64,000 bases of DNA from Acidobacteriota bacterium (GCA_003223645.1 QHVT01000007.1:106531-170530), one strand, 5' to 3'; shown: positions 3,042 through 59,677, counted from the stretch's first letter. Notes: generated by a model not told the origin, from the letters alone. Numbers and translations are program-made.

Positions 3042-5033
3042 TCAAGTGACGTCGACTTCGATCCGCGCGGGCGTCGATCCCGTTTGCGCGAACCACGTCA
3101 CTTTGTTAGCGACGCAGTCGAGCTCGATGATGTAGCGGCCGGGATCGAGCGGCGCGAGGTCGAACGAGATGGTCGTCTCTTCCTGCGGCGCGAGCGCGCG
3201 ATCGAGCGGCTGCCACGCGTAGTCGAAGCGGATCAGCCGTCCGTTTTCGGCGTACAGGTGCGCGCCGAGGACGACGCCGCCGTAGAGAACGTCGGAGGGG
3301 AGCCACTTTGCACGGCCGATATTGCGCACGGTCGCGCGCACCGTCATGCCGGTGATCGATGCGTCGATCGATGCGCGCAGGCCCGCGGGATGACGACTGT
3401 CGATTTCTTCCGCGCCCGCCTTTGTCAGAAAGAAGTCGCGGACGTTGTGGAGAAACGCGCGGGTCGACTCGGCCCAGCGCGCGTACGTTGCGCCGGCGGC
3501 GAGGAGGTCGTCGAACTCGGCGAGCGAGACGTGGAAGGGCGGGACGTTGTAGGCGGCAATTTTCAGATCGGCGAAGCCGAGGCGCTGCGCGGCGTCCCAG
3601 ATCGCGTGAATGTCGACGTCGTTCTCGACGACGCCATACGTGCGCATCTCGTACTGCGACTGCGCGGTCGTCGAATGCAGCGGCCCCGGCTCTGCGAATG
3701 CGGCGATGCCGCCGGGCTTCAGCACGCGTCCGAACTCGCGCAGCACTTCTTCCGGATTCGGCGCGTGATGAAACGCGTCGAAGCAGACGATGCGATCGAC
3801 GCTCGCGTCGGGAAGGTCAATGTGTTGTCCATCGAAGACGAGGAAGCGCGGCTCGGGACGCGTGCCGATCGGCGGCTGCCGCGCGAACAATTCACGCGCG
3901 ATGTTCAGCGCGGTGGGGGAGACGTCGAGCAGGATCGTGTTGCATCCGAGCTGCGCGAGGAAGCGCGAGAGCCATCCCGTGCCCGCGCCGTATTCGAGCA
4001 CGGTCATTCCGGGAGTGAGGTTCAGTCCCTGGATCGTGACGCCGAGGTTGATCAGCAACTGCGGCGCATCCTCGGCGCGCGAGAACGGCTTGGCGAGGTG
4101 ATCTTCCCAGTCGCTGAGCGAAGCGAAATACGCCTCGGCGGTCCGGTTGAGTTCTTCGATCGACGTGGTGGCGATCATCTGTTTTACGTCGATTACTTGT
4201 GGAGCGGCGGCCGCCCCCGGCCGCCGAAACGGAACGGCGTCGATCGCTGGGACGTTTGTTTTTTCGGCGGCCGAGGGCGGCCGCCGCTCCACAGACTCGA
4301 GCTGCGCCCGACGTTGCGCGTAAACGATCACCGAATCCAGATCCCCATGCTTCGAGAAAACCACGTGCGGCGAGTCGAATCCCGCGTCCTGCAGAATCGC
4401 GAATACCTCGTTGATGTCGTAGGTGTTGCTCTCAATGAACGGCTCCGCCGCCGGTTTTCGTCGCAACACGTTGATCGCGGCGTTCACGCCCGGCACGCGT
4501 GCGCGCGCCTTGCGTGAGACGGAAACGAGCGGCGAGAGCTCCGCGCGATACGGAAACTGGAACACGCCGGTGCCGCCTTCGCGCACGCGCTTCGTCAGCG
4601 TGCGCAGCAGGTCGACGCCTTCGCCTCGCGGCAGTCGCTGCAGGACAAGAAAGCAGTTGACGAGATCGAACGTCCGCTCATGGAGCTCGCGTTGCAGCTC
4701 GACGTTCGTCACGCCCGCTTTCGCGATGTGCGTGCGCGCGGTGTCGAGCATCGACTGCGAGATGTCGACGCCGGTGACGTTCGCCGCGCGGCGTGCAAAC
4801 GGAATGAGCAATCGTCCGACGCCGCATCCGTACTCCAGCACCGTCTCCGGAGCGAAGTGCGGCGCGACGCGCGCACGCACGATGCCGTACAGCTCCGACA
4901 CGTACGCTTCTCCGCTGTCGAAGAACTCCGCCTCGGCCGCGGCATCGAAATGTTCGCGCAGGTAGCGCGCGTGTGTGAGGACCGCGAAGTACGGCTCGCG
5001 CGCGGCGAACGCGTCCCACGCGGCGATGTTCAT
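3042..5033 (-). CDS. fused tandem class I SAM-dependent methyltransferase (two MTase domains plus ~170-aa C-terminal domain); linker encoded by a palindromic repeat element
   Basis: Two glycine-rich SAM motifs (VLEYGCGVGRLL and VLEYGAGTGWLSRFL; DRIVCFDAFHH...LKPGGIAAFAEP); continuous 663-aa ORF; residues ~246-280 (ERRPPSAAEKTNVPAIDAVPFRRPGAAAAPQ) are encoded by repeat at 4198-4293. Confidence 0.7.
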   Translation of the reverse strand: MNIAAWDAFAAREPYFAVLTHARYLREHFDAAAEAEFFDSGEAYVSELYGIVRARVAPHFAPETVLEYGCGVGRLLIPFARRAANVTGVDISQSMLDTARTHIAKAGVTNVELQRELHERTFDLVNCFLVLQRLPRGEGVDLLRTLTKRVREGGTGVFQFPYRAELSPLVSVSRKARARVPGVNAAINVLRRKPAAEPFIESNTYDINEVFAILQDAGFDSPHVVFSKHGDLDSVIVYAQRRAQLESVERRPPSAAEKTNVPAIDAVPFRRPGAAAAPQVIDVKQMIATTSIEELNRTAEAYFASLSDWEDHLAKPFSRAEDAPQLLINLGVTIQGLNLTPGMTVLEYGAGTGWLSRFLAQLGCNTILLDVSPTALNIARELFARQPPIGTRPEPRFLVFDGQHIDLPDASVDRIVCFDAFHHAPNPEEVLREFGRVLKPGGIAAFAEPGPLHSTTAQSQYEMRTYGVVENDVDIHAIWDAAQRLGFADLKIAAYNVPPFHVSLAEFDDLLAAGATYARWAESTRAFLHNVRDFFLTKAGAEEIDSRHPAGLRASIDASITGMTVRATVRNIGRAKWLPSDVLYGGVVLGAHLYAENGRLIRFDYAWQPLDRALAPQEETTISFDLAPLDPGRYIIELDCVANKVTWFAQTGSTPARIEVDVT
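4198..4293. repeat. palindromic element family B, copy 1 (inside dual-MTase CDS); copy 2 at 16172-16244
   Basis: tgtggagcggcggccgcc-cccggccgccga ... cggcggccgagggcggccgccgctccaca with ~30-bp arms; second copy has a shorter centre. Confidence 0.8.
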
Positions 5034-5377
5034 GCCTTCGCTGCGAACGCCGTCATCGCCTCGTCTTCACTCTCGTAGACCTGAAACATCGGAAGGAGAT
5101 TGGTGAGGCGGAGGGTCTTGGTCACGCGGTCCTGCGGCTTGAGCAGGCGCAGCGAAGCGCCGCGGCGTTGCGAGTCGCGGAACGCCTGCACCAGCTCGCC
5201 GAGGCCGTTGCTGTCGATGTAATCCATCTCGGAGAGATTGAGGAGAATCTTCTTCCCGCCGGAGTCGAGAATCTCGGCGATGATCTGCGGCAGCACCGAG
5301 TCGCCCACCCCGATCGCGAGCCTCCCGCGAAAGTCGACGATCGTCACATCCTTTGATTTGCGTACGGCAATGTCCAT
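5030..5377 (-). CDS. STAS-domain anti-sigma-factor antagonist (SpoIIAA/RsbV-like)
   Basis: 115 aa; IVDFRGRL...LNLSEMDYIDSNGLGELV STAS signature with conserved Ser; stop overlaps start of downstream dual MTase. Confidence 0.8.
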   Translation of the reverse strand: MDIAVRKSKDVTIVDFRGRLAIGVGDSVLPQIIAEILDSGGKKILLNLSEMDYIDSNGLGELVQAFRDSQRRGASLRLLKPQDRVTKTLRLTNLLPMFQVYESEDEAMTAFAAKA

Positions 5378-5396
5378 GGGGCGGGATCATATGCGC

Positions 5397-5507
5397 AGAG
5401 GCTCACAGGCTCAAAGGCGCATGGGCTCAAAGGCGCAGAGGCTCAAAGGCTCATGGGCGCATAGCGGTTTCTCTCTGAGCCTATGCGCCTGTGAGCCTAT
5501 GCGCCTG
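5397..5507. repeat. octamer tandem array (GGCKCANN x8) followed by inverted octamers (TGAGCCTA/TGCGCCTG x2 each) in divergent promoter region of STAS gene and response-regulator operon
   Basis: ggctcaca ggctcaaa ggcgcatg ggctcaaa ggcgcaga ggctcaaa ggctcatg ggcgcata ... tgagccta tgcgcctg tgagccta tgcgcctg. Confidence 0.8.
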
Positions 5508-5547
5508 TCTTCACAACTTCTTCACGAATCTGACTACCATCGATCAG

Positions 5548-6206
5548 TGCGCAGGAAAGTTCTCCTCGTCGAAGACGACCCGAAGATTCGCGGGACGGTC
5601 GAGTTGTACCTGCAGCGCGAGGGCTACGACGTGGCGATTGCGGATGACGGCGTGCGCGCGCTGGAAGTCGCGCGTGATGTGAAGCCGCATCTCGTCTTGC
5701 TCGATCTGATGTTGCCGCGGATGGATGGACTCGAAGTCTGTCGCGCGCTGCGCGCGAACGGCGACGCGGCGATCATCATGGTGACGGCGCGGTCGACCGA
5801 GGACGACAAGCTGACGGGACTCGACCTCGGCGCGGACGACTATGTGACCAAACCGTTCAGTCCCCGCGAGCTGATGGCGCGCATTCGCGCGGTGCTGCGG
5901 CGCGTTGCGGACGATGACGTGATCGAAGTGAGCGGGATGGTGATCGATCGAGCGCAACGCGAGATCCTCGTGGGCGGCGAAGCGATCGGCGTGACGCCGA
6001 CGGAGTATCGCCTGCTGGAGACGCTCGCGCGCGCGGCGGGGCGGACGTTCACGCGGCAGGAGCTGGTCGAGCGCGCGCTCGGCGAGGACTACGACGGGCT
6101 CGATCGCACGGTCGACGTCCACATCATGAATCTGCGCCGCAAGCTGGGCGATGCCGGCAAGGCGATCGTCACCGTCTTCGGCGTCGGCTACCGGTTCGCG
6201 AAATGA
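5548..6206 (+). CDS. OmpR-family response regulator (REC + winged-helix); start uncertain (GTG ~5548, or ATG 5494 inside repeat array)
   Basis: KVLLVEDDPKIRG...LDLMLPRMDGLEV...DDYVTKPFSPREL...TVFGVGYRF; ATGA overlap with downstream kinase. Confidence 0.85.
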
Positions 6207-7474
6207 TCCTGCGCTCGCTTCGCTGGCGTCTCGCGATCGCGATGGCGCTGATCATCGCCGCGGTCTTCGCGGCGGCGGGCGTGTTCTCGAGCCTCACCGT
6301 CAGGCGCGAGTTCGATCAGTTTCTCGTCACGCAGCGAAAGAGCGACATGCGACCCGCCGCGCGCGTCGTCTTCAACGCGCGCGGCGAGATCGTCGAGCGC
6401 TTTCCGCCGGAGTTATCGCAGTTCGACATCCACCGCGACGCGGACGGCACGCTGCATCTCACGCGTCGCAACGGCGGAGGCGCCGAGTCGCTCGTGGTGA
6501 AGACGAGGCCGCTGCGGATCGGAGATGCGAGCGTGTACTTTCTCCCGCGGCCCCAGACGCACGACGCCGTTTTCAAGACGAGCGTGAATCGATCGCTCAT
6601 CGCCGGAGTCGCGATCGCCGCGCTGCTCGCGATCGCGGTGATGATGACGCTGTTTCGCCGCGTGTTCGCGCCCGTCGAAGAGCTGACGCGGGGCGCGCGT
6701 GCGCTCGCCGATGGAAAGCTCGATGCGCGCGTCGACGTGCGGGGACGCGACGAAGTCGCGGAGCTGGCGACGGCGTTCAACGGCATGGCCGAGGCGCTGG
6801 AGCGGAACGAGAAGGCGCGGAGAAACATGGTGAGCGACGTCGCGCATGAATTGCGCACGCCGCTCACGAACATCCGCGCGCAGATCGAGGCCGTGCAGGA
6901 CGGCGTGATGGTCGCGGATGAGAAGTGGCTCGCGTCGATCGAGGAAGACGCGGCGCTGCTCGCGCGGCTCGTCGACGACCTGCAGCAGCTCTCGCTCGCC
7001 GAGGCGGGGCAGTTGCGATTGGAGATCGAAGAGATCGAGATCGCGGAGCTCGTGGAGCGTGCGGTGAGCGGACTCGATGCGCGTGTAGAGGAGAGCGGGC
7101 GTCCCGCCCGCCCCCGGGAGGCGGGCAAGATGCCCGCGCTCCTCCACGATGTCCCGCAAGGTTTGATCGTGCGCGTCGACGCGCAGCGGATGGTGCAGGT
7201 GCTGCGCAATCTGCTCGTGAACGCGATCGCGCATGCGAAGTCGACGGTCGAGATTCGCGCGACGGCGAACGAGATTCGCGTCATCGACGACGGTCCCGGC
7301 GTGCCGCCCGAGCACGCGGAAAAAATCTTCGATCGCTTCTATCGCGCCGATGCCTCGCGCTCGCGCGCAACCGGCGGCACAGGCCTCGGCCTCGCGATCG
7401 CAAAAGAGCTCGTCGAACTGCACGGCGGAAAGATTTGGTATGAAAGGCCGACGTTCGTGATCCGCTTGCCATAG
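6203..7474 (+). CDS. sensor histidine kinase (TM-HAMP-HisKA-HATPase_c) carrying an in-frame palindromic-repeat insertion
   Basis: AHELRTPLTNI H-box, NLLVNAIAHA N-box, DDGPGVPPE, GGTGLGLAIAKELVELHGG; residues ESGRPARPREAGKMPALL encoded by repeat 7089-7145. Confidence 0.85.
   Translation: MILRSLRWRLAIAMALIIAAVFAAAGVFSSLTVRREFDQFLVTQRKSDMRPAARVVFNARGEIVERFPPELSQFDIHRDADGTLHLTRRNGGGAESLVVKTRPLRIGDASVYFLPRPQTHDAVFKTSVNRSLIAGVAIAALLAIAVMMTLFRRVFAPVEELTRGARALADGKLDARVDVRGRDEVAELATAFNGMAEALERNEKARRNMVSDVAHELRTPLTNIRAQIEAVQDGVMVADEKWLASIEEDAALLARLVDDLQQLSLAEAGQLRLEIEEIEIAELVERAVSGLDARVEESGRPARPREAGKMPALLHDVPQGLIVRVDAQRMVQVLRNLLVNAIAHAKSTVEIRATANEIRVIDDGPGVPPEHAEKIFDRFYRADASRSRATGGTGLGLAIAKELVELHGGKIWYERPTFVIRLP
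7089..7145. repeat. REP/MITE-like palindromic element family A, copy 1 (inside histidine kinase CDS)
   Basis: aggagagcgggcgtcccgcccgcc-cccgggag-gcgggcaagatgcccgcgctcctc; further copies 45045-45095 (partial), 54908-54950 (partial), 59578-59635 (full). Confidence 0.8.
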
Positions 7475-7498
7475 GGTCTCGTGCGCATTCGCGATACG

Positions 7499-7582
7499 TT
7501 TGTGGGTGCCGCTGCCCTCAGCGGCACCGCGACCGCTGAGGGCAGCGGTCGCCACAGCTGAGGGCAGCGGTCGCCACAAAGG
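7499..7582. repeat. palindromic element family D, copy 1; copy 2 at 12664-12764
   Basis: tttgtgggtgccgctgccctcagcggcaccgcgaccgctgagggcagcggtcgccaca(gctgagggcagcggtcgccaca)aa; both copies in 3' intergenic gaps. Confidence 0.8.
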
Positions 7583-7588
7583 TTACGC

Positions 7589-8377: not shown

Positions 8378-8893
8378 ATGCGCGCGCCCATGCAACGGCC
8401 CCAGGTCCTCTTCCTCGTCAAATTCTTCGTCATCCTCATCGCCGCGTATCTGCTGATCGCGTGGAATCCCGTGAACGACAACGTCATCGTTCCGTTCACC
8501 GCGTGGATCGCGCGGACGTCGGGATGGCTGCTGAACCTGATGGGGCAGGGCGTCACGATGAACGGCACAATCATCGCGTCATCGAAATTCGCGGTGAATA
8601 TCAACAACGGCTGCAACGGCGTGGAGGCGATGCTGATCCTGCTCGCGTCGATCGGCGCATTTCCCGCTCCGATCAAGTCGCGCGGGATCGGTCTCCTTCT
8701 CGGCGCGCTCGCGATTCAGGTGCTGAACGCGGTCCGCATCATCACGCTCTTTCTCATCGGCGCGCATTACCCGAAGTACTTCGACTCTTTTCACACCGCG
8801 GTCTGGCAGGTCATCATCATCCTCGCCGCGATCGTTTTCTTTTTGATCTGGAGCAGCCGCGTTGCCCGCACTCGATTGGCGACTAGTAGTTAA
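8378..8893 (+). CDS. exosortase/archaeosortase-family-like polytopic membrane protein (putative)
   Basis: Multi-TM; NINNGCNGVEAM (Cys motif resembling exosortase active-site ACSG) and LNAVRIITLFL (N..R motif); track ORF starts 8306 inside a REP element, first ATG at 8378. Confidence 0.4.
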   Translation: MRAPMQRPQVLFLVKFFVILIAAYLLIAWNPVNDNVIVPFTAWIARTSGWLLNLMGQGVTMNGTIIASSKFAVNINNGCNGVEAMLILLASIGAFPAPIKSRGIGLLLGALAIQVLNAVRIITLFLIGAHYPKYFDSFHTAVWQVIIILAAIVFFLIWSSRVARTRLATSS

Positions 8894-9437
8894 GGCGCTC
8901 GCCGGCTTCGTCGCCGGCCTCGCGGTGTGGCTGCTGCTCTCGCCGCAGTACGACCGGCTCATTGCGCGCTGCGCGGAAGCGACGCTGCGCACGTTCGAAA
9001 AACCGCCGGTCACGCGTCTACGTCCTGGAGAAGATCAGTACGTGACGGTCGATCGCACCGACTTCGGTTCCGGTTCGCAACGTCCCGCGATTCCGCTGCG
9101 CGACCTCACGTTCAACTTCGTCCTCCTGACCGCGTTGTTCGCGACCGGAAAGCGTCCATTCTCCGATCGCAACATCGCCGGCTTTCTCATCGCCTCCGTG
9201 CTCCTCGGCCTCACGCACATCGGCGCTGCAATCACCGAGGTGATGTCGATTTACGTCGCGAAACTCGGATTGTGGAGCAACGTTCACTACGGCTCGTTCG
9301 CGCGCAACTTCTGGGGAGTCGCGAATCACTTCTACCGCCTCGTGCTGATGTACGCGATCGCGTTTGCGCTCTGGTGGATTTTTCGCGGGAATGACGGAGA
9401 CGAGCGCACAAAAACGAGAGGTAGACGGCGACGCTAG
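8862..9437 (+). CDS. hypothetical 4-TM membrane protein, overlapping and probably co-transcribed with exosortase-like gene
   Basis: 191 aa, four hydrophobic segments, basic C-terminus; 32-nt overlap with upstream gene. Confidence 0.4.
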   Translation: MPALDWRLVVKALAGFVAGLAVWLLLSPQYDRLIARCAEATLRTFEKPPVTRLRPGEDQYVTVDRTDFGSGSQRPAIPLRDLTFNFVLLTALFATGKRPFSDRNIAGFLIASVLLGLTHIGAAITEVMSIYVAKLGLWSNVHYGSFARNFWGVANHFYRLVLMYAIAFALWWIFRGNDGDERTKTRGRRRR

Positions 9438-9476: not shown

Positions 9477-10382
9477 ATGCGGCTGGTCACCCGCGGTGAC
9501 CTCGACGGACTCACGGGCGCCGTCATCATCACGATGAAGGAGCCGGTGGACGAAATCCTGCTCGTACACCCGCAGGACATCACCGACAAGCGCGTCGACA
9601 TTCGCCCGGACGATATTCTCGTGAACCTGCCGTACGACCCGCGCTGCGGCATGTGGTTCGATCACCATCTCCTCACCGACAGCAACGAGAAGCCGCCAGC
9701 CGATTACAAGGGACGGTACGGACTCGCGCCGTCGGCCGCGCGTCTCGTGTACGACTACTACATCGAGCGCGATCCCGATGACGCGGCGCTGAAGAGATTC
9801 GCGCCGCTGGTGGATGAAACGGATCGACTCGACGCCGCGCTCCTCACTCCCGACGATGTCGAGAATCCGCGCGAGTACATCCTCCTCGGATACACGATCG
9901 ACAGCCGCACCGGCTTCGGTCAGTTCGAGGATTACTTTCACAAGCTCATCGAGGCGCTGAAGACGAAGAGCATTCAGGAAGTGCTGGCGATGCCGGAGGT
10001 GCGCGAGCGCATCGACCGCCTGCGCGCCGACCAGTCGAATTTCAAGACCCTGCTCTCGCGCAACAGCTTCCAGTTGAACAACGTCGTCGTGACGGATTTG
10101 CGCGAGATCGAACAGCTTCCGGCCGGCAACCGCTTTCTCGTCTACACGCTCTTCCCCGACGCCAATGTGTCGCTGCGCGTGCACTGGGGACCGCGCCACG
10201 GCAGCGTGATCGCGGCGGTGGGACACAGCATCTTCAACCGCACGTGCAACACGTCGGTGGGCGAGCTGATGTCGCGCTTCGGCGGCGGCGGACATCGCGG
10301 CGCGGGGACGTGCGTGCTGCCGATCGACTCGGCTGCCGACGCGATCGACGAGATCCTGTTCGAGCTGCAGGCGAACGGGTGA
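9477..10382 (+). CDS. DHH/DHHA1-family phosphoesterase (NrnA-like nanoRNase/pAp phosphatase)
   Basis: RGDLDGLTGAVII (DxDG), MWFDHH (DHH motif), C-terminal GGGGHRGAGTC (DHHA1 GGGH..AG). Confidence 0.7.
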   Translation: MRLVTRGDLDGLTGAVIITMKEPVDEILLVHPQDITDKRVDIRPDDILVNLPYDPRCGMWFDHHLLTDSNEKPPADYKGRYGLAPSAARLVYDYYIERDPDDAALKRFAPLVDETDRLDAALLTPDDVENPREYILLGYTIDSRTGFGQFEDYFHKLIEALKTKSIQEVLAMPEVRERIDRLRADQSNFKTLLSRNSFQLNNVVVTDLREIEQLPAGNRFLVYTLFPDANVSLRVHWGPRHGSVIAAVGHSIFNRTCNTSVGELMSRFGGGGHRGAGTCVLPIDSAADAIDEILFELQANG

Positions 10383-10825
10383 AGCTGCGCGTCGCGACCG
10401 CGGACGACGCGCGTTGGATCAACGAGCGCTACGCCGAGGTGCGATTCCTCCCGTCCGATCTCTCGCACGAAGTCATCGTGATCGCGTCGATCGACGACGA
10501 GCCCGCAGGCCTCGGACGCATCGTCGACGTCGACGAACACTCGTGCGAGCTGGGAGGCATGCTCGTGTTCGAGCGGTTCCGCGGCCGCGGCGTCGCGCGC
10601 GCGATCATCGACGAGCTCCTCCGCCACGCGCGCGGACGCGACGTGTACTGCATCCCGTTCGCGGAGTTGGAAGCGCTCTACGCAAGCGCGGGATTCACGC
10701 GCGCAAGCGAAGCGCCGCGCGAGGTGCGGGAGAAGTTCGAATGGTGTCAGCGGACGTATGAGAAGCCGGTGATCCTCACCGTCATCCTGAGGCGCAAAGA
10801 CGCCGAAGGATCTCAGGATACGTAG
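10379..10825 (+). CDS. GNAT-family N-acetyltransferase
   Basis: GLGRIVDVDEHSCELGGMLVFERFRGRGVARAIIDELL acetyl-CoA-binding R/Q-x-x-G-x-G/A motif; GTG start overlapping upstream stop (GTGA). Confidence 0.7.
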   Translation: MKLRVATADDARWINERYAEVRFLPSDLSHEVIVIASIDDEPAGLGRIVDVDEHSCELGGMLVFERFRGRGVARAIIDELLRHARGRDVYCIPFAELEALYASAGFTRASEAPREVREKFEWCQRTYEKPVILTVILRRKDAEGSQDT

Positions 10826-10857
10826 CTTGAGATCCTTCGCCGTCTGCGCGGCTCAGG
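10783..10857. terminator. ~31-bp imperfect inverted repeat between convergent genes; putative bidirectional terminator hairpin
   Basis: cctgaggcgcaaagacgccgaaggatctcag ... cttgagatccttcgccgtctgcgcggctcagg; spans GNAT stop (10825) and thioesterase stop (10868); no clear U-tract. Confidence 0.4.
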
Positions 10858-10867
10858 ATGACGAGAG

Positions 10868-11352: not shown

Positions 11353-12663
11353 ATGATCGCGATCCTCCTCGCTACCGCGCTCACCGTGCACGTACCGGAG
11401 AAGCCGGGCGGCCGCACGATCAACCTCAATGTCTCGGTCATCGAGTCGAAAGAGAAGCACGACGACGCGATCTTCGCGCTCGCCGGCGGCCCCGGCGTCG
11501 CCGCGACCGGCATGGCCGGCTACATGACGCGCACGTTCGCCGGATCGGGACGCGACATCGTGCTCATCGACGCGCGCGGCACCGGCAAATCGAATCCGCT
11601 GCACTGCGACTTCGGCGGCAGCGACAAAGACCTGCAGGGGTACTTCAACGACTTCCTGCCGCTCGACAAAGTGACGGAGTGCCGCGACCAGCTCGCGAAG
11701 CGCGCCGATCTGACGCAGTACACGACGTCGCGCATCGTCGACGACGTCGAAGCCGTCCGCAAGAAGCTCGGCTACAAACAGATCGATCTCTACGGCACGT
11801 CGTACGGCACGCGCGTCGCCATCGAGTACATGCGCCGCTATCCGAAGAACGTGCGCGCGGCGATCCTCGACGGCGTCGTGCCGCCGTCGCTGCACATATC
11901 CGAGACGTTCGCCGCCGACGCGCAAAGCTCGCTGGATCGCGTGATCGATCTCTGCCTCGCCGACGCGGATTGCGGAGAGACCTATCCGCGACTGCGCGAC
12001 GACTATGCGACGGTGATGGACCGTGTCGCCGACGAAGGCATCGACGTCGCGCTGGAAGGGAAGAGCGTGCACATCAACCGCGGATTGTTCGGCGAAGTGC
12101 TGCGCAATTTCCTCTACTCACCCGAGGTCTACAAGAAAGTGCCGCAGGTGATCTACAACGCGGCGCGCGGCAACTGGGTCCTGTTCGGTGACATGGCGCT
12201 GAAGTACGTGCGCGGCATCCGCGAAGGAGTCGACGTCGGATTGTTTCTCTCCGTCAGCTGCACCGAGGACGTGCCGTCGATGGAGATCGCCAAAGCGCGC
12301 TTGGCCGCGAAGGGCACGTTCCTCGGCACCTACCGCGTCAATCAGCAATACGAGGCGTGCAAGATCTGGCCGCACGGAAGCGCCGTCGACAACTCGACGA
12401 TCCATCAGCCGCTCGTGTCCGCGATCCCGACGCTGCTGGTGTCGGGCGAGCTCGATCCCGCGACGCCGCCGCGCTTCGGAGACGAAGTCGCGCGCGGTCT
12501 CAAAAACTCGCTGCACGCCGTCATCAAGTACGGCAGCCACTCCGGCGACACGGGCGGATGTCAGGAAAAGGTGATGAGCGAGTTCGTGCGCGAAGGATCG
12601 GCGGCGAACCTCGAGCACGACTGCTTCGAGTCGCAGAAGAAGCCGTCGTTCACCGGCAAATGA
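11353..12663 (+). CDS. alpha/beta-hydrolase (peptidase S33-like)
   Basis: 436 aa; nucleophile elbow GTSYG, ALAGGPGVAATG oxyanion region. Confidence 0.65.
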   Translation: MIAILLATALTVHVPEKPGGRTINLNVSVIESKEKHDDAIFALAGGPGVAATGMAGYMTRTFAGSGRDIVLIDARGTGKSNPLHCDFGGSDKDLQGYFNDFLPLDKVTECRDQLAKRADLTQYTTSRIVDDVEAVRKKLGYKQIDLYGTSYGTRVAIEYMRRYPKNVRAAILDGVVPPSLHISETFAADAQSSLDRVIDLCLADADCGETYPRLRDDYATVMDRVADEGIDVALEGKSVHINRGLFGEVLRNFLYSPEVYKKVPQVIYNAARGNWVLFGDMALKYVRGIREGVDVGLFLSVSCTEDVPSMEIAKARLAAKGTFLGTYRVNQQYEACKIWPHGSAVDNSTIHQPLVSAIPTLLVSGELDPATPPRFGDEVARGLKNSLHAVIKYGSHSGDTGGCQEKVMSEFVREGSAANLEHDCFESQKKPSFTGK

Positions 12664-12765
12664 TTTGTGGTGACCGCTGCCCCAGCGGTCACACCGCCGC
12701 CATTGGCGGCGGCTCAGCGGCGCGTTGCGCCGCGCGACCGCTGAGGGCAGCGGCCGCCACAAGAA

Positions 12766-45039: not shown

Positions 45040-45092
45040 CGGTGATCGCGGAGCGAGACGCTCCGCGATGGCGGGCGGGACGCCCGCGCTCC

Positions 45093-47899: not shown

Positions 47900-48030
47900 G
47901 CTCGCGCGCCCGCGTGATTACTGCCCAGCCCGGGCGCGGGCGCGGGCGCGGGCTCGGGCAGTGACGTGATTTTGCCCGCCCACCCCGGGCGCGGGCTCGG
48001 GCGCGGGCTCGGGCAGGGGCTCGGGAAGTT
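47900..48030. repeat. GC-rich palindromic/microsatellite-like element family E (CGGGCGCGGGCKCGGGC runs), copy 2; copy 1 at 32248-32343
   Basis: Shared core gcccgcccaccccgggcgcggg(c/a)(t/g)cgggc...; inverted arms ctgcccagcccgggcgcgggcgcgggcgcgggctcgggcag. Confidence 0.7.
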
Positions 48031-51201: not shown

Positions 51202-51297
51202 CGTGTCATTCCGAGCCGCGCAGACGGCGAGGAATCTCCCGCCTCGCGAGCTGCAGGGGATTCCTCGCCGTCGTTGCGGCTCGGAATGACACGGTGA

Positions 51298-54033
51298 TTA
51301 CAGCTTCTCCGGATCTACCTTCGCGATCTCGCCGAGGTTCAACTCGCGAATCCCTGCCTCCACCTTCTTCAAATCGCCGACGATGATCCAAATCACTTCG
51401 TCGGGATGCACAACTTTTTTCGCGGCGTCGTTCAGATTCGTCTCGGTCAGCGCGCGGATGTTGTTCGCGTATTGGGCGTAGTACTCCTCGGGGCGGCCGG
51501 TGGTGAGCATGCCGATGGCGGCGGCGTTGAGCGAGCCGAGTGTCTCGTACGCGCCGGGGAGCCGCATCACCTGGCTGCGCATGATGCTCGTGAATTCTTC
51601 GCCCTCGATCGGGCGCGCGCCGGCGACGCCGGCGATTTCCTTTTGCACTTCGAGGATCGACTCTTTCGTCTTGTCGGTCTGCACCGGCGCGATCACGAGG
51701 AACGGGCGCGGTCCGCGCGTCGTGTTCAGCGCGCCGCTCGTTCCGTAGCTCCAGTGTTTGTCGAGGCGCAGGTTACGATTGAGGCGCGACGTCGACATGC
51801 CTCCGAAGTTGCGCAGCACGGTTTCAATCGCGAGGTCTTCCGGCAGTCCTCCCGCCTCGGAGACATGCGCCGCGACGACGACGGATTGCGGCGCGTCCGG
51901 CTTGTCGATGAGATACACCTTCTTGCCGGTCGAGCGCGGCACCGCGTCGATCTTCTTCGCCGGCGCCTGTCCCGATTTCCACGACGCGAATGCTTTCTCG
52001 AGCTCGGGCACGAGCTTCTCCATCGTGGTGTCGCCGACGACGACGAGCGTGCTGTTGTTCGGATGGAACCACGCGCGATGCCACGCGACGAGATCGCTGC
52101 GCGTCATCTTCGCGAGCGTCGACGCGTAGCCGGTGCCGGTGAACGGAGTGCCGTACGCGTGGTTCTCGCCGTACAGCAGCAGCGGCGCGATACGCAGTGC
52201 GGCGGTCTGCGGCTGCACCTGTTCCTGCTTGATGCGTGTGATGTGCTGTTGCCGCAGCAGCGACACCTGATCTTCGGGGAATGCCGGATGCAGAACGACG
52301 TCCGAGTAGATCGCGAGCGACGGACCGAGGTTCGTCGATAGCGCGGAGAGGGACACGAACGACAGATCGAGTGAGTTGCTGGTGAAGACCCGCGCGCCGA
52401 TCGCGTCGAGCTCGTCCTGAATCTTGAAAGCGTCGCGCGTATCGGTGCCTTCGTCGAGCACGTCCATCGCGAGACCCGCGAGTCCGGCAGTCTTCGCGCT
52501 GTCCGACGCCGAGCCCGCGTCGACGGTGAGCGTCGCGTTGACGAGCGGCACGTTGTGACGCTCCATCAGCATCACCTTGAGTCCGTTCGACAGCGTGGCG
52601 CGCTGCACTTTCGGGAACTTCACTTCGGGCGCGTCGCCGAGGATGGGGAGGGCTTTGCGATCGAGGCTCGTGCTGCCGGCGCTCAGTTGCGGGAACGGCT
52701 GCACGACCATCGTGTAGTGATTTGTGTCGAGCCACTGCTTCGCGGCCTTCGTCACTTCGGCCGGCGTCGCCGTCGCCATCGTCTGCAGGCGATCGAGGTA
52801 GTAGTTCGGATTGCCGCCGTAGGTCATGCTCTCCGCGAGGACGTCGGCACGGCCGCCGAATGCGCCGAGGCGCTCGGTGCCGCGAACGTAGGCGGCGAGA
52901 TTGCGCGACTGCGCGCGTTTCAGCTCCTCGTCGGTCGGACCGTTTTTTACGAGCTCCGCGACGACCGCGTCGATTTCTTTCTCCACTTCGGCCGGCCGCA
53001 CGCCCGGCTTCACCGTCGCCTGGATGATGAGACCACTCGCGATCTCGCCGTCGGAGATGAACGCGGCGACGTCGGTGGCGAGGTTCTTGTCGTAGATCAG
53101 CCGGCGATCGAGTCGCGCGCTCTTCGATCCGCTCAGCACATCGGCGATGAGCGACACGTATTGCAGCTGCAGGTCCTTCCACGCCGGCGCGTGGTAGAAG
53201 CGATAGACGCGAGCCTGCGGGACGCGGTCGAACATCGAGTCGCGCAGGTTGTGATCGAATTTCGGGATCCACGTTTCGGCTCGCGTGAGTGGCGGTCCGG
53301 GCGCGACGCCGTTAAAGTATTTCTTCACCACCTCGAGCGCGTGCTGCGGGGTGATGTCGCCGGAGAGGACGAGCACGCAGTTGTTCGGACCGTAGTAGGT
53401 CTTGTACCAGTCGCGCACGTCGTCGAGTTGCGCGGCGTTGAGGTCCTCCATGCTGCCGATCGTCGACCATGAATACGGATGCGAGTACGGGTAGACGATC
53501 TCGCTGATGCGATCGTAGACCTTGCCATACGGCTGGTTCTCGCCCTGCCGCTTCTCGTTCTGCACGACGCCGCGCTCGCGCTCGAGCATCTCCTTCGAGA
53601 TCTGTGCGGCGAGGAAGCCCATGCGATCGGCTTCGAGATAGAGCGTGCGTTCGAGCGCGGAGACCGGGACATCCTCGAAGAAATTCGTGCGATCGGTGTT
53701 GGTCGTGCCGTTGCGATTGTTCGCGCCGAGGTCGTCCATCGCCTCGCGAAAGCCGTGCGGATAGTTCTCGCTGCCGTTGAAGAAGAAGTGCTCGAACAAA
53801 TGCGCGAAGCCCGTCTTCCCGCGCTTCTCGTTGCGCGAGCCGACGTGATACCAGAGATTGACCGCGACGATCGGCACGCTGTGGTCCTCGTGCACGAGCA
53901 GCGTGAGCCCGTTGTCGAGCACGAACTTCTCATGCTTTATCTCAAACTGACTGCGGTTGAAGGAGGGCTTCGCCTCCGGAGCAGCGAGCGTCGGGAAGGC
54001 AAGCGTCAGCGCGAGAAAGGCCGCGAATTTCAT
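51298..54033 (-). CDS. secreted M16-family (pitrilysin-like) zinc peptidase, tandem M16 halves
   Basis: Signal peptide MKFAAFLALTLAFPTLA; inverted zinc motif HLFEHFFF (HxxEH); ~910 aa. Confidence 0.85.
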   Translation of the reverse strand: MKFAAFLALTLAFPTLAAPEAKPSFNRSQFEIKHEKFVLDNGLTLLVHEDHSVPIVAVNLWYHVGSRNEKRGKTGFAHLFEHFFFNGSENYPHGFREAMDDLGANNRNGTTNTDRTNFFEDVPVSALERTLYLEADRMGFLAAQISKEMLERERGVVQNEKRQGENQPYGKVYDRISEIVYPYSHPYSWSTIGSMEDLNAAQLDDVRDWYKTYYGPNNCVLVLSGDITPQHALEVVKKYFNGVAPGPPLTRAETWIPKFDHNLRDSMFDRVPQARVYRFYHAPAWKDLQLQYVSLIADVLSGSKSARLDRRLIYDKNLATDVAAFISDGEIASGLIIQATVKPGVRPAEVEKEIDAVVAELVKNGPTDEELKRAQSRNLAAYVRGTERLGAFGGRADVLAESMTYGGNPNYYLDRLQTMATATPAEVTKAAKQWLDTNHYTMVVQPFPQLSAGSTSLDRKALPILGDAPEVKFPKVQRATLSNGLKVMLMERHNVPLVNATLTVDAGSASDSAKTAGLAGLAMDVLDEGTDTRDAFKIQDELDAIGARVFTSNSLDLSFVSLSALSTNLGPSLAIYSDVVLHPAFPEDQVSLLRQQHITRIKQEQVQPQTAALRIAPLLLYGENHAYGTPFTGTGYASTLAKMTRSDLVAWHRAWFHPNNSTLVVVGDTTMEKLVPELEKAFASWKSGQAPAKKIDAVPRSTGKKVYLIDKPDAPQSVVVAAHVSEAGGLPEDLAIETVLRNFGGMSTSRLNRNLRLDKHWSYGTSGALNTTRGPRPFLVIAPVQTDKTKESILEVQKEIAGVAGARPIEGEEFTSIMRSQVMRLPGAYETLGSLNAAAIGMLTTGRPEEYYAQYANNIRALTETNLNDAAKKVVHPDEVIWIIVGDLKKVEAGIRELNLGEIAKVDPEKL

Positions 54034-54087
54034 GCGCGGCATTGTAGGGCGGGGACTTTGGATTGCGGTGACAACGTCACCGCTTTC

Positions 54088-54543
54088 TCACAGCGATTTC
54101 TTGTCCCTCAACTCTTCGAGGCGGCGCACGTCTGGAAGGTCCTTCTCAGCGTTTCCGGTGGCGCGTTTCATCTTGATCAGTTCGTCCACGCCGGCAAATG
54201 CAGTCGGGACACCGAGCAACTCGCTTTCCAGTCGCCCATTCCAGACCTCGTCCCAGGTGACGCCTGGGACGCGACTGTGAACGTCGATGCGCATGAGACC
54301 ACCGAAGGACAGGATGTCTCCGGAGATGAAATCGCGAGGGTCGTATGTCTCTTCGAACGAACCCCACGCGGCAACCGCGCGACGCACTTTTTCCGCGTTC
54401 TCGATCGTCGGTTCGATCAGCACATCAATGTCGCGAGTCGTCCGATACGGGACATGCGCGATCACCGCTATCCCGCCAATCACTACATAGGCCGCGCCTT
54501 CTCTGTTGAGTAGGGTGAGGAAATCGGCAAAGTCCTTCGTCAC
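54088..54543 (-). CDS. minimal nucleotidyltransferase (MNT)-fold protein
   Basis: VVIGGIAVIAHVPYRTTRDIDVLI = hG[GS]-x(n)-D-h-D NTase signature. Confidence 0.55.
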   Translation of the reverse strand: MTKDFADFLTLLNREGAAYVVIGGIAVIAHVPYRTTRDIDVLIEPTIENAEKVRRAVAAWGSFEETYDPRDFISGDILSFGGLMRIDVHSRVPGVTWDEVWNGRLESELLGVPTAFAGVDELIKMKRATGNAEKDLPDVRRLEELRDKKSL

Positions 54544-54948
54544 GTCCGAATCCTCTCACAGCCCACAACGCGTACGCCGTATCCAGCAGCGCCACCATCG
54601 CCTCGATGCGCTCCTCCTGCGTCGCCGCGAGCGCATCCTCGACGTCCTGCCGGACGATCTCCTCCTCGGAGCGAACGAGCGGCATACGGCGAGACTTTGC
54701 GCGTTGATTCGTCATTTGTCCGCCGCGTACGCCAACCCGTCCGGCTCCGTCCCCGTCTCTACTTCTCCGGCGAAAAACGCCGCGGCGAATTTCATGCACG
54801 GCATTGTAGGGCGGGGGCTTTGGACTGCGGTGACAACGTCACCGCTTTTTTGATAGGGCTCCGTGCATGCTCTTGAAAGCGGCGGCGTAGCCGCCGCAGT
54901 CCAAAGGACCCGCCCGCCCCACGGGAGGCGGGCAGGATGCCCGCTCTC

Positions 54949-55734
54949 CTATGAGCTCGGGCGCGTGGTGAAGTAGCGTTTGAGCCACTTCGACAAGCCG
55001 TCGAGTCCGGGGAAGAGCACGCGCTCGGTGATGTTGGCCTGATCGAGTTTGTCGCGGATCTCCCACTTCAATGCCGCGGGGACGATGATGCGCCGGTGGG
55101 TGTCGTCGTGCTGTGCGAGGAGGTCTTCCAGTCGCAGGGAGGCGCTCGACGGCAATGAGAAGAGCGCGAACTGGTTGACGATGCGCTCGTCGAGCGACGG
55201 CGGCTCGAAGAAGAGGACGAAGTCTTCGCGCGCCAGCGCATCGAACGACTCGAGGGTCGTGGCAACGCTGTTCAACAAGTCGGTGGTAAAGATGTTGACG
55301 TCCTCGGCGTCGAGGACTTTGCGCAGCGGGCGGGGGAGGAGGTCGTTGGTCTTGCGATAGTCGACGCACCAGATCGTTGCGTCTTCGTTGAAGTGCGCGA
55401 GCTCGTTGGTCGCGAAGTGCAGCGCGACGTACGGCGAGTACGTCCAGTCGAGAAGCCGCGTCGGCAGTCCGTGATGTTTGGCGAGCGAGAGCCAGTTCCA
55501 CACGAAGTCGCCGTGGACGGCGTTGCGCGCCGCGTATTTGCGGAAGCTCGTGAGGAGGTGCCGTTCGTGCGCCACGAAGTTGCCGGTCTGCAGACTCGTG
55601 TCGAGTCCGTGGCTCGCACGCGGGGCTCCGCGAAACACGAAGTTCGAGCGATGGCGCGAGAGCGAGTCCTGCCAGGAATTGTCGAACAGGGCCTCCTGCA
55701 GCTCGATCCACGTCGATACGCGCGTCTCTCTCAC
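54949..55734 (-). CDS. FRG-domain protein; start uncertain (GTG 55734; track ORF extends to 56064 through antisense of neighbouring gene)
   Basis: NFVFRGAPRASHGL (FRG motif) and downstream WTYSPYVALHFA. Confidence 0.5.
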   Translation of the reverse strand: MRETRVSTWIELQEALFDNSWQDSLSRHRSNFVFRGAPRASHGLDTSLQTGNFVAHERHLLTSFRKYAARNAVHGDFVWNWLSLAKHHGLPTRLLDWTYSPYVALHFATNELAHFNEDATIWCVDYRKTNDLLPRPLRKVLDAEDVNIFTTDLLNSVATTLESFDALAREDFVLFFEPPSLDERIVNQFALFSLPSSASLRLEDLLAQHDDTHRRIIVPAALKWEIRDKLDQANITERVLFPGLDGLSKWLKRYFTTRPSS

Positions 55735-56749: not shown

Positions 56750-56950
56750 CGCCTTCCTCGGTCACGCAGTTGCGCGGTCACTCGGTTGCGCGGGGAAGCA
56801 GCGCCGCGCAACCGAGCGACTACGCAACCGAGCAACCGGGTGAGGGCGTAGCGCCTTCCTCGGTTACGCAGTTGCGCGGTCACTCGGTTGCGCGGGGAAG
56901 CAGCGCCGGGCAACTGAGCGACTGCGCAACCGAGCAACCGGGTGAGGGCG
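56747..56950. repeat. 2 x 102-bp tandem direct repeat, each unit with internal dyads
   Basis: Unit agcgccttcctcggtcacgcagttgcgcggtcactcggttgcgcggggaagcagcgccgcgcaaccgagcgactacgcaaccgagcaaccgggtgagggcgt repeated with few mismatches; contains ctcggttgcgcgg...ccgcgcaaccgag 13-bp inverted repeat; fills the whole gap between convergent genes. Confidence 0.85.
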
Positions 56951-58270: not shown

Positions 58271-58275
58271 CGTGG

Positions 58276-59232
58276 CTAATGGCGCGCCAGTCCCCACGGT
58301 CCATCATCTGTTTTGATCGTGTTGACGACGCGATTTGCGGCCGTGTCGATGACCGTGATGGTGTTCGACAAACTGTTCGCGGCGTAGACCTTGCGGCCGT
58401 CGTGGGTCATCGCGATTCCCCAGACGCGATTGCCGGCGGGGATGGTGGCGATGATTTTTTTCGCGGCGGTGTCGATCACGGCGACGCTGTTGCCGCGGCC
58501 TGTCGCGACGTACAAACGTTTTTCGTCGGGCGTGAGCACGAGTCCGACGGGGCGCGTGTTCGGGAGTTTGATGCGTTGCACGAGGCGATGTTTCGTCACG
58601 TCGATCAGCATCACGCTCGCGCCGATCTCCGCGGTGGCCCACGCGCGTTTTGCGTCGCGCGTAAACACGGTCGCGCGCGGTCGCGGGTCGAGGAGGATGT
58701 TGGCGACGACCTGTTTCTTCGCCGTGTCGACGACGGAGATGGTGTTGCTCGACTCGCCGGTGACGTAGACCCATTTGCCGTCCGGACTCGCGGCGACGCC
58801 TTCCGGCTCGGTGCCGACGACGAGCGTGGCGACGGATTTTCCGTTCGCGACGTCGAGGATCGACGCGGTCGCGGCGTCTTCATTCGAGGTGAAGAGCCGT
58901 TTGCCGTCCGGCGAGACGGCGACGCATTCGGGATCGGTCGCGGCGACGTAGTCGCGAATCGTCTTCAACGTATTTGTGTCCAGCGCGACGATCGCCTCGC
59001 GTCCGCTGCGCGGATGTTTGCCGTCGCGCCACCAGCTCAGCGCGACGTAGAGGCGCTTGCCGTCGGGGGAGACGGCGAGTCCGCGCGGACGGTTGCCGAG
59101 GTTGCGCGACGCGATCACGCGATCGGTGGCGGTGTCGATGATTTGGATCGTGCCGGCGCGCTCGTTGGAAACATACAGATGATCGGCGAATGCACTGGCA
59201 GCGAAGAGGAGGACGAGGAGAAGGCGTTTCAT
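58276..59232 (-). CDS. secreted YncE/YVTN-type beta-propeller repeat protein
   Basis: Start MKRLLLVLLFAASAFA; repeated V..SPDGKRLYV / T...V.VIDTA blades; ATGA overlap with upstream cytochrome c gene; track ORF N-terminus runs through a REP. Confidence 0.7.
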   Translation of the reverse strand: MKRLLLVLLFAASAFADHLYVSNERAGTIQIIDTATDRVIASRNLGNRPRGLAVSPDGKRLYVALSWWRDGKHPRSGREAIVALDTNTLKTIRDYVAATDPECVAVSPDGKRLFTSNEDAATASILDVANGKSVATLVVGTEPEGVAASPDGKWVYVTGESSNTISVVDTAKKQVVANILLDPRPRATVFTRDAKRAWATAEIGASVMLIDVTKHRLVQRIKLPNTRPVGLVLTPDEKRLYVATGRGNSVAVIDTAAKKIIATIPAGNRVWGIAMTHDGRKVYAANSLSNTITVIDTAANRVVNTIKTDDGPWGLARH

Positions 59233-59549
59233 TTCAGCGTGCGCAGGTACTCCGCGATCTCCTGCGCGTCCGCGTCGGGGATGTTGAGCGCGGGCATGCT
59301 GCTGGACGGATTGAGCGACGCCGGCTCGTGGATGAACTTCGCCATGTTCTCCGGCGTGTTCGGGACTTTGCCGTTGCTGATCGCCGGCCGCGCGCCGATG
59401 CCTTCGAGCCTGGGACCGATCGCGCCATGGCCTTCGACGCCGGGAATCGTGTGGCAGGTCGTGCAGCCGTATTGCTCGATGAGCTGCGGACCGCGATTCG
59501 ATTTCTTGCACGCGGCGAGGAAGAGCAGTGTGATTCCGAGCGCCAGCAC
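59229..59549 (-). CDS. small c-type cytochrome, probable lipoprotein (start uncertain, possibly GTG 59549)
   Basis: LFLAAC lipobox; heme motif CTTCH; paralogous to C-terminal domain of upstream CtaG-like protein; REP copy immediately 5'. Confidence 0.45.
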   Translation of the reverse strand: MLALGITLLFLAACKKSNRGPQLIEQYGCTTCHTIPGVEGHGAIGPRLEGIGARPAISNGKVPNTPENMAKFIHEPASLNPSSSMPALNIPDADAQEIAEYLRTLK

Positions 59550-59677
59550 TGCGCGATGCCCGGATATCGATCGAAAAGAGGAGAGCGGGCATCCTGCCCG
59601 CCTTCCGCGGGCGGGCGGGACGCCCGCTCTCCTCGGTGCGGGGAGCAGGTGCCCCGTGTGATGCGAACATCTCATCA

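Follow-up and report, generated by a model that had tools for sequence, protein, structure and literature searches.

The repeats of the 64-kb window, the whole stretch of DNA that was analysed, are most probably REP/REPIN elements; they are ordinary biology, a known kind of element with new members. The window comes from an Acidobacteriota soil bacterium of the Thermoanaerobaculia group. It is very probable that the repeats are REPs arranged in REPINs, non-autonomous and spread in trans by RayT (HUH/Y1) transposases. The basis for this reading is their structure, their dispersal, their presence or absence in relatives, the lack of target duplications and, in other genomes, the physical linkage of identical or near-identical units with RayT genes. 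The preliminary description had listed at least 12 copies of at least five palindromic families, A–E, and had called them dispersed and REP/BIME-like. All listed copies were found at their positions, and none of the five families consists of sequences unique to this locality, the finding that would have spoken against dispersal. The list itself was an undercount, as four further repeat types (F, G, H and I) and an 8-nt tandem array are present in the window (Table 1).

Table 1. Repeats in the window, with the z score of the fold.
Repeat	Position	Strand	Fold z	Arrangement and context
A1	7088-7144	.	-5.1 (DNA fold, -25.9 kcal/mol)	inverted doublet (REPIN), in frame within histidine kinase gene 6203-7474(+)
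A2	45059-45094	+		single unit beside unrelated hairpin 45045-45069; between convergent genes
A3	54908-54951	+		left arm truncated, right unit full
A4	59578-59634	.	-7.4 (-31.2 kcal/mol)	doublet between cytochrome c and CtaG genes, same direction
B1	4198-4293	.	-9.2	doublet, in frame in two-domain methyltransferase gene 3042-5033(-)
B2	16172-16252	.	-9.5	doublet between LMF1-like and PAS-kinase genes
C1	8303-8365	.	-7.7	doublet between rsmE and exosortase-like gene
C2	33208-33270	.		doublet between divergent desaturase and beta-lactamase-family genes
D1	7499-7588	.	-8.2	three units between histidine kinase gene and rsmE
D2	12664-12762	.	-8.8	doublet with two small hairpins in spacer
E1	32248-32343	.		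palindrome between aldo-keto reductase and desaturase genes
E2	47921-48019	+		two E arms in direct orientation; neighbouring genes convergent
F1	10780-10863	.	-10.3	CGTC-tagged doublet at end of GNAT gene 10379-10825
F2	51202-51293	.	-11.1	TGTC-tagged doublet between convergent topoisomerase subunit A and M16 peptidase genes
G	54020-54086, 54782-54848			local 67-nt duplication
H	56752-56947	.		tandem duplication of a palindromic 102-nt copy; neighbouring genes convergent
I	63666-63749	.	-7.4	palindrome, arms of GATGGCR heptamer repeats; upstream of COX1 gene
8-nt tandem array	5383-5470			

The units share one plan: a GC-rich stem of 7–11 bp with a loop of 3–6 nt, preceded by a short unpaired head. 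Those of families A–D are short imperfect palindromes of 24–30 nt with stems of 7–10 bp and loops of 3–4 nt. Units pair head-outward across a spacer of 7–35 nt, and this inverted doublet (REPIN) arrangement is found in A1, A4, B1, B2, C1, C2, D1, D2, F1 and F2. The heads of B, C and D are TGTGG or GTRG and carry the GTAG tag or one of its recorded variants (GTRG, GTGG), while F has CGTC or TGTC. B1 consists of the head TGTGGAG, a 9-bp stem and a CCCY loop; family C of the head GGTGTGG or GGTGTAG, the stem CAGGCT/AGCCTG and the loop TTCC; and family D of the head TTGTGG, the stem GACCGCTG/CAGCGGTC and the loop CCCT. Since the family A head, GGAG(A/C)GC (GGAGAGC or GGAGCGC), lacks a GTAG-type tag, A was not filed in the GTAG super-family. 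Its hairpin, GCGGGC-GTCCC-GCCCGC, is almost unchanged across several phyla, and the outer loop positions form Watson-Crick pairs (G..C or A..T) in 116/121 modules. Every element is more stable than all 200 of its dinucleotide shuffles (z -3.8 to -11). The window has six matches to the A half-site where shuffles would give 0.02, which is more than chance. Rfam 15 gave no matches for the repeats at gathering score, and a permissive pass returned only chance-level matches to miRNA hairpins (24–43 bits versus thresholds of 53–114).

Families A–E are dispersed and not local because the same units recur in other genome or metagenome loci. The D unit was found at no fewer than 116 soil-metagenome loci and at five or more sites on one 99.5-kb contig, the metagenome matches being mostly plus/minus pairs 32–72 nt apart. 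The A half-site is present at 93 or more genome loci in many phyla. Units were also counted in 880 kb of related loci selected by D, with the reversed sequence as control. This sample holds 16 units of A, 14 of B, 17 of C, 32 of F, 10 of H (H-related, in lineage-matched loci) and 43 of I, or about one non-D unit per 6.4 kb; the E architecture recurs six times in related loci. None of these seven families has a unit in the control. An F doublet is also present in a Thermoanaerobaculia locus (L062).

A1, C1 and D1 are missing at the orthologous sites of syntenic relatives. The histidine kinase that carries A1 has a 90%-identical homolog with the insertion and orthologs of 75–88% identity without it, A1 amounting to 51 extra nucleotides relative to the orthologs in relatives L094 and L095. 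D1 is missing in L095, where the histidine kinase gene and rsmE overlap by 4 nt. The same gap may hold different families in different relatives: the C1 site is empty in L095 and occupied by an I-type element in L094, a locus in which I-type copies are present, and a B unit stands in place of F1 in L094. At the B1 site, L095 carries a doublet that resembles B and has a covarying stem, and L094 a degenerate remnant.

Linkage to RayT comes entirely from other genomes, as the 64-kb window contains no RayT gene, and it is exact for D and A only, with near-matches for B and C. D units lie in inverted orientation on both sides of a Y1_Tnp gene in L213 and L214 and adjoin the 3' end of such a gene in L171 and L212. 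A modules flank Y1_Tnp genes in Armatimonadota (L007), Terriglobia (L223) and Binatia (L224), and in Gemmata (L220) a Y1_Tnp gene is flanked by a stem-covarying version of A, giving four phyla with A linkage. B-like units are found on either side of RayT in L215, and a C-like doublet follows RayT in L216. The Y1_Tnp homologs near units are labelled by their sources as "REP element-mobilizing transposase RayT".

Three of about 16 copies (A1, B1 and F1) are incorporated into conserved protein-coding genes, to which they add 15–32 residues in linkers or at the C-terminus. A1 is a 17-codon in-frame insertion between the HisKA and HATPase_c domains of the kinase. B1, 96 nt or 32 codons, lies in the inter-domain linker of the methyltransferase, whose homologs in relatives (645 and 658 aa) are likewise one two-domain gene. 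The GNAT gene ends within F1, which provides its final 15 codons together with its stop codon. The peptides ESGRPARP at A1 and ERRPPSAA at B1, previously dismissed as artefacts, lie in conserved genes, the first a true insert in a conserved histidine kinase and the second inside a conserved methyltransferase.

The earlier claim that the repeats seed false N-terminal extensions probably holds for the exosortase-like, LMF1-like and aldo-keto reductase genes and is not supported for A1, B1 and the ORFs encoding LWRPLPSAVA. ORFs with the peptide VERRPPSAA begin inside B1 and B2, and in B2 the result is a GTG-initiated extension of 28 aa (VERRPPSAAG...); the LMF1-like start at 16243, within B2, is probably a false N-terminal extension. 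The same is probable for the aldo-keto reductase start at 32288, within E1. The exosortase-like protein would have 195 aa from GTG 8306, within C1, whereas its orthologs have 171 and 167 aa. L095 has just 7 nt upstream of the gene; judged from these sequences, the extension from C1 looks false. ATG 8378 had been proposed as the start of this gene, but it is ATG 8390 that all three relatives share as a conserved start. The TATAAT-like box there, GCCTATAATGCGCGCGCCCATG, had been tied to C1; it is native sequence, being kept in L094, whose element at that site differs. The LWRPLPSAVA ORFs, which begin inside D1 and D2, are not extended genes but whole antisense shadow ORFs (6413-7579 and 12118-12762, minus strand).

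Families E, H and I are dispersed palindromes, and no transposase link was found for them in the loci sampled. They could form a separate class unrelated to RayT, either palindromic arrays made by slippage or G-quadruplex elements that travel by some other route, and that simply co-occurs with the others. In all three the arms are built of short-period repeats whose number varies, GC-rich hexamers of the form (GGGCNC)n in E1, unlike the head and single stem-loop of A–D; the E arms fit a G3-N3 quadruplex motif, and no RayT gene was found beside E, H or I (nor beside F) in the few RayT loci sampled. That sample is small, however, and placement, size, inverted-arm design and dispersal are common to the other families. 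An I-type element even occupies the L094 gap equivalent to that of C1. A separate origin for E, H and I is possible but rather unlikely.

In a window with a coding fraction of 0.883, 12/14 A–F copies are intergenic (binomial estimate ~5e-10); six are uni-directional, five convergent, one divergent and two intragenic, in agreement with the mostly intergenic or convergent placement first described. Ten or more copies lie 0–43 nt from gene ends, chiefly between uni-directional or convergent neighbours. D2 takes up the whole space that separates the convergent genes for a hydrolase and AcpH, the final 2 nt of A2 overlap the stop codon of a SpoIIE-like gene, and the terminal CTA of A3 is the TAG stop of an FRG-domain gene, 54949-55734(-). 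Together with the great stability of the hairpins, and with secondary roles of this kind that PMC3733652 reports for REPs, such positions would suit immobile hairpins that evolved locally and arose in place for regulation, whether as terminators, as attenuators or as stem-loops that stabilise mRNA. But near-identical sequences occur at unrelated loci in unrelated genomes, orthologous gaps lack the copy or hold another family, three copies lie in coding sequence, and identical units flank RayT genes. No T-run follows the hairpin at any A–F copy, so none has the sequence of an intrinsic terminator; the G duplication does contain a hairpin with a T-run after it. Regulation is a possible function of the repeats, not their origin, and as an account of origin, which the dispersal data contradict, it is very unlikely.

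It is highly improbable that the repeats are MITEs. Such elements derive by deletion from insertion sequences of the DDE type, move by cut-and-paste, and have terminal inverted repeats and target-site duplications. Two features would fit: each element as a whole is a palindrome, so that its ends are inverted repeats, and C2 is bordered by a 20-nt direct repeat that the Y1 mechanism does not predict. But at 11/12 copies the flanking direct matches do not exceed 7 nt, the terminal CTCCTC of A1 already exists at the empty site (L094, L095) and is not duplicated, neither a DDE transposase nor a parent insertion sequence was seen in the window, and only Y1_Tnp transposase genes were found beside units.

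According to Bertels & Rainey 2011 (PMC3116915) and Di Nocera et al. 2013 (PMC3733652), GTAG-tagged REPs and REPINs with matching RAYTs (REPtrons) occur in Pseudomonas, Enterobacteria, Stenotrophomonas and Opitutus terrae. PMC3733652 documents GTGG and GTRG variants of the tag (O. terrae GTAG-20 is recorded with a variant) and notes that one genome may hold several REP families, each with its own REPtrons. It also describes uni-directional and convergent placement, REP ends that supply stop codons, and intragenic dimers of 20–30 aa. B, C and D resemble these elements in their unpaired tag, 7–10 bp stem and 4-nt loop; in inverted dimers with short and sometimes structured spacers; in mostly extragenic placement, the lack of target duplication and the presence of several families in one genome; and in RayT genes that have the matching units beside them (L213, L214, L215, L216). 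They differ in the tag, which is TGTGG or GTRG and not GTAG. With E. coli-type BIMEs there is only a general resemblance, that of clustered inverted REPs.

Family A calls for another comparison. In the 2013 survey (PMC3733652), RAYT-like genes of Acidobacteria are flanked by long terminal inverted repeats and not by REPs; these TIRYTs or TIRtrons, RAYT-like tyrosine transposases whose terminal inverted repeats are in some cases double palindromes, are reported from Acidobacteria and Accumulibacter. The A module likewise stands as inverted copies on both sides of Y1_Tnp genes of a distinct clade, belongs to a moderately abundant dispersed family and has Accumulibacter and Acidobacteria among its hosts, a likeness at the level of description. 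Unlike a long terminal inverted repeat, it is a short hairpin with a 7-bp stem, nearer to a REP, and the 24-nt half-site pattern used in the scan recurs in at least eight phyla, a spread beyond what the survey describes.

The same survey lists Rickettsia RPE-4/RPE-6 and Neisseria dRS3 among CGTC-tagged REPs, repeats without a dedicated transposase (PMC3733652). Family F shares with them the tag, CGTC in F1 and TGTC in F2, AT at stem positions 1–2 and the inverted dimer, and F1 adds coding sequence as the rickettsial elements do. It differs in its 11-bp stem with a conserved internal GA/GA mismatch (versus 8–9 bp), its 6-nt loop (versus 4–5 nt), the lack of a clear CCA tail and its host phylum. 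A1, B1 and F1 are kept in frame inside conserved genes as Rickettsia palindromic elements are, but the repeats of the window have no sequence relationship to RPE-1.

The window thus holds at least two systems, a variant of the GTAG super-family (B, C and D) and family A with a separate RayT clade; F is CGTC-tagged. The stem and loop sequences are new, and the host is a member of the Thermoanaerobaculia. A RayT (REP-associated tyrosine) transposase, predicted to be encoded elsewhere in the genome, would mobilise the units in trans. By analogy with published RayT and IS200/IS605 biochemistry, it would bind the folded hairpin on single-stranded DNA, cut at the head and then reinsert the doublet. 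Copies at operon ends may have a secondary role as RNA or DNA hairpins, and those inserted in frame where the protein tolerates them may be kept as extra peptide segments.

The repeat copies of palindromic families A to E listed in the preliminary description were all recovered by a repeat finder and by direct reading of the sequence, and types F to I were added to them. The half-site of family A, GGCGGGCRRGAYGCCCGCKCTCCT, matches six times in the window against 0.02 expected. When folded as single-stranded DNA, each element beat 200 of 200 shuffles, with z-scores from -3.8 (copy E2) to -11.1 (copy F2). Families A to D share a common design, in which an unpaired head is followed by a GC-rich stem with a small pyrimidine-rich loop, and a second, inverted unit is placed so that the heads face outward. 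The outer loop positions of module A covary (G..C or A..T in 116 of 121 modules), which argues that the true structure is a 7-bp stem with a 3-nt loop. Family F has a CGTC or TGTC tag and an 11-bp stem broken by a conserved GA/GA mismatch, and its stem halves covary between F1 and F2. The arms of E, H and I are short tandem repeats. Those of E carry a textbook G-quadruplex motif on one strand, the other arm being the C-rich complement. Direct reading found no T-runs after the A to F copies. No Rfam RNA family matched the repeats at gathering score, and a permissive pass returned only chance matches to miRNA-like hairpins.

Repeat types and neighboring features (window positions unless a related locus is named)
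Feature	Position	Head	Stem	Loop	Description
Family A		GAGGAGAGC	GGGC(R)	TCY	
Family B		TGTGGAG	CGGCGGCCG	CCCY	
Family C		GGTGTRG	(G)CAGGCT	TTCC	
Family D		TTGTGG	YGACCGCTG	CCCT	
Family E, arms	32300-32343, 47921-48019				(GGGCNC)n runs
Family F	10780-10863 (F1), 51202-51293				CGTC-tagged; beyond the preliminary list
Type G	54020-54086 and 54782-54848				local duplication, 67 nt; beyond the preliminary list
Family H	56752-56947				tandem palindrome, 102 nt; beyond the preliminary list
Family I	63666-63749				palindrome with heptamer arms; beyond the preliminary list
Copy C1	8303-8365				rsmE-exosortase gap
Direct repeat at C2	33184-33203 and 33277-33296				perfect, 20 nt, TGTTAACCAAATCCCGTCTC
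Tandem array	5383-5470				period 8 nt, GGCKCANA, about 11 copies, direct repeats only; beyond the preliminary list
Region of the exosortase-like gene	8378-9437; L095 11933-12980				short gene, 171 aa
Gap elements of L094	L094 14400-14580 and 16990-17083				
Lower-GC islands	23300-29400 and 36100-43400				GC 0.56-0.59 versus about 0.64 elsewhere
DUF6036 gene	54088-54543 (-)				nucleotidyltransferase-like
FRG-domain gene	54949-55734 (-)				matches PADLOC PDC-S15

The possibility that families A to E are unique local sequences was tested and fails, as all five recur in other loci. In 880 kb of soil-metagenome loci, picked by their D unit and not including the window's own contig, 16 A, 14 B, 17 C, 32 F, 10 H and 43 I units were counted against 0 in reversed-sequence controls. 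The first pattern used for E, GGGCGCGGGCKCGGGC, was unspecific (17 in the loci versus 19 in the control). Its replacement, a 20-nt E head, gave 6 matches versus 0, with the two-arm architecture every time. The D unit is present in at least 116 soil-metagenome stretches, mainly as doublets, and long contigs carry several sites. At least 93 stretches of a species-representative genome collection contain the A half-site, often in multiple copies per genome. Together these matches indicate that A to F, H and I are dispersed families. Hosts of the A half-site include Verrucomicrobiota, Armatimonadota, Acidobacteriota, Chloroflexota, Planctomycetota, Desulfobacterota and Alpha-, Beta- and Gammaproteobacteria, the proteobacterial ones including isolates of Methylovulum and Paramagnetospirillum. 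Full A doublets near-identical to A1 were found in two Thermoanaerobaculia MAG loci (L043 and L065). A search of viral contigs for phage carriage gave no matches to module A.

The 64-kb window encodes no Y1 or RayT (REP-associated Y1_Tnp transposase) gene, and such genes were found beside the repeats elsewhere. An E. coli YafM sequence was used as a tblastn query for leads only, and matches were then checked by Pfam. Y1-like ORFs were found near A modules and were identified by Pfam as Y1_Tnp. In the Armatimonadota locus L007, the Y1_Tnp gene lies between A-type modules of opposite orientation, and its homologs, annotated at source as RayT, are widespread. GGGAGC-GCGGGC-GTCCC-GCCCGC flanks the homologs of Terriglobia (L223) and Binatia (L224). 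Around the homolog of Gemmata obscuriglobus (L220) the arrangement is the same and the stem is compensated (GCGGCC-GTCCC-GGCCGC).

Other families are also found beside RayT genes. The stop codon of the L171 RayT falls in a D unit, and intact homologs in L213 and L214 have inverted D units on both sides. The L171 copy itself has an apparent frameshift. The two RayT genes of L215 have a GTAG-headed REP apiece, and one of these REPs, GTGTAGCGGCGGCCG-CTC-CGGCCGCCG, is closely related to B. Downstream of RayT lies a C-like doublet in L216 and a further TGTGG-headed family in L218. In three contigs (L171, L212 and L213) the D-type RayT adjoins the same genes, for an NrfD-like protein and a 4Fe-4S ferredoxin. 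This suggests that the D-type RayT occupies a fixed chromosomal position, and constant neighbors are what would be expected of a gene kept vertically in single copy. RayTs of the D type show no cross-match to those of the A type, so this lineage has at least two coexisting systems.

Metagenome contigs L094 and L095 are syntenic with positions 1-10.8 kb of the window, at nucleotide identities of 84-92% (L094, aligned blocks) and 75-84% (L095). In L095 the histidine kinase gene and rsmE overlap by 4 nt, and 7 nt separate rsmE from the exosortase-like gene. This tight spacing argues that D1 and C1, which occupy these two junctions in the window, are insertions in the window's lineage. Between rsmE and the exosortase-like gene, L095 is empty where the window has C1 and L094 has an I-type element. 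At the 3' end of the GNAT gene, L094 carries a B unit and the window carries F1. Such orthologous intergenic gaps behave as hot spots, filled by one family in one genome and by another in its sister. Eleven of the 12 copies lack a flanking direct repeat longer than 7 nt. C2, in the promoter region from which the desaturase and beta-lactamase genes diverge, has one copy of a perfect direct repeat on either side; the flanking match at other copies is at most 7 nt. This direct repeat may stem from duplication of an operator or may be the footprint of an atypical insertion.

Three copies lie within coding sequence. A1 adds 51 nt (17 codons) relative to orthologs, between the HisKA and HATPase_c domains of the histidine kinase. 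The insert is shared with a 90%-identical homolog and is missing from orthologs at 75-88% identity. The empty site already has the terminal CTCCTC of A1, as two leucine codons. In this single case the site resembles target-adjacent insertion by IS200/IS605-type elements. Three kinase orthologs (P0012, P0016 and P0024; 74-78% identical in alignment) have WGAGV(P/S)PA... at the A1 linker, and AGVPPA is the translation of GCGGGCGTCCCGCCCGC. Judged from sequence, this linker may be an independent A-type insertion. B1 sits in the linker between the two domains of a methyltransferase, which one gene encodes in all three relatives. At the B1 site, L095 has a B-like doublet whose stem differs and is still self-complementary, and L094 has a remnant. 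F1 supplies the 15 C-terminal residues of GNAT together with its stop codon, and the GNAT tail varies among relatives with the repeat present there.

Ortholog alignments rule out A1 and B1 as ORF artefacts or as fusions of separate genes. The preliminary claim that repeats produce ORF artefacts is half right: it fails for these two copies and holds for the exosortase-like gene, where orthologs confirm the false N-terminal extension. Similar extensions are probable in the LMF1-like and aldo-keto reductase genes, and the LWRPLPSAVA ORFs are antisense shadow ORFs. The exosortase-like start codon kept among relatives is ATG 8390, not 8378. C1 was rejected as the source of the TATAAT box, since the box is shared with L094, whose element at that site differs, and the preliminary promoter remark is not supported. 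The next gene after the exosortase-like one in L095 carries the annotation XrtH_assoc (PF28117), which makes an XrtH-type system the probable identity of the pair.

The gene map was based on codon statistics and Pfam, and gives a coding density of 88% at about 63% GC. Judged by how homologs are named, this high-GC chromosome segment comes from a Thermoanaerobaculia-like acidobacterium. Intergenic sites account for 12 of the 14 A to F copies, 0-43 nt from the flanking genes (6 same-direction, 5 convergent and 1 divergent). This is the placement published for REPs (PMC3733652). The ends of A2 and A3 overlap or provide stop codons, and A3 supplies that of the FRG-domain gene. The FRG-domain protein matches a candidate defence family at E 2e-43. 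The tandem array separates the divergent STAS and response-regulator genes. G consists of 94% identical direct repeats around the DUF6036 gene; the repeat includes a hairpin that resembles a terminator and has a T-run, as well as the 5' end of the M16 peptidase gene. It was rejected as a REP family, with no further copies in 880 kb of related DNA, and seems to be a local duplication that surrounds an inserted cassette. The lower-GC islands contain defence-type genes: those for type II methyltransferases, a Cas4-like nuclease, a BrxD-like ATPase, ThyX, and a kinase+AAA and a CARF-like protein (PADLOC CARF6 models). Neither island contains a repeat copy, which fits recent acquisition.

Dispersed inverted doublets, REP-type placement, and D units and A modules flanking RayT genes elsewhere support the REP-like interpretation first proposed. 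Known REPs have tag variants including GTGG, form dimers, and comprise several families with their own REPtrons (a RAYT with matching REPs); they show characteristic placement, provide stop codons, give misleading N-termini and include intragenic dimers that code for 20-30 residues (PMC3733652; PMC3116915; PMC5581495). All of these behaviors are thus already on record for REPs. Within the GTAG super-family, B, C and D are new families. Family A is the REP belonging to a separate RayT clade, and F is CGTC-like. No paper turned up in a full-text literature search for the A core in its two orientations, and descriptions of the specific repeat sequences, the host lineage and the near-invariance of the A hairpin across phyla were not found.

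REPINs, the inverted doublets of REP units, are usually lineage-specific, whereas the family A hairpin is near-invariant across phyla. Its 24-nt half-site pattern, with four degenerate positions, is a multi-copy repeat in at least 8 phyla. The RayT genes flanked by A (Armatimonadota, Terriglobia, Binatia and, with the compensated stem, Gemmata) are only 54-58% identical to one another. We tentatively propose, as a rather doubtful joint reading, that the A hairpin is matched with its RayT clade in a single REP-transposase pair of unusual conservation, and that A and GTGG-family REPINs in this lineage were repeatedly recruited as protein linkers and C-terminal tails. If this is true, either protein-DNA recognition is strict enough to have frozen the A REP through deep evolutionary time, or a "domesticated" transposase system, for which vertical inheritance is the usual description, crossed phyla fairly recently.

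With the consensus units, these repeats can be masked at once in Thermoanaerobaculia genomes and in those of related soil Acidobacteria. The units aid start-site correction, as in the exosortase-like, LMF1-like and aldo-keto reductase genes, and help to discard antisense shadow ORFs. They also guard against the opposite error, which would be to dismiss real in-frame insertions (histidine kinase, methyltransferase, GNAT tail) as artefacts. These repeats do not overturn current understanding. They extend GTGG-headed REP/RayT systems to a poorly studied, uncultured lineage, and the A-type RayT clade with its cross-phylum hairpin could be a tractable model of RayT-DNA recognition.
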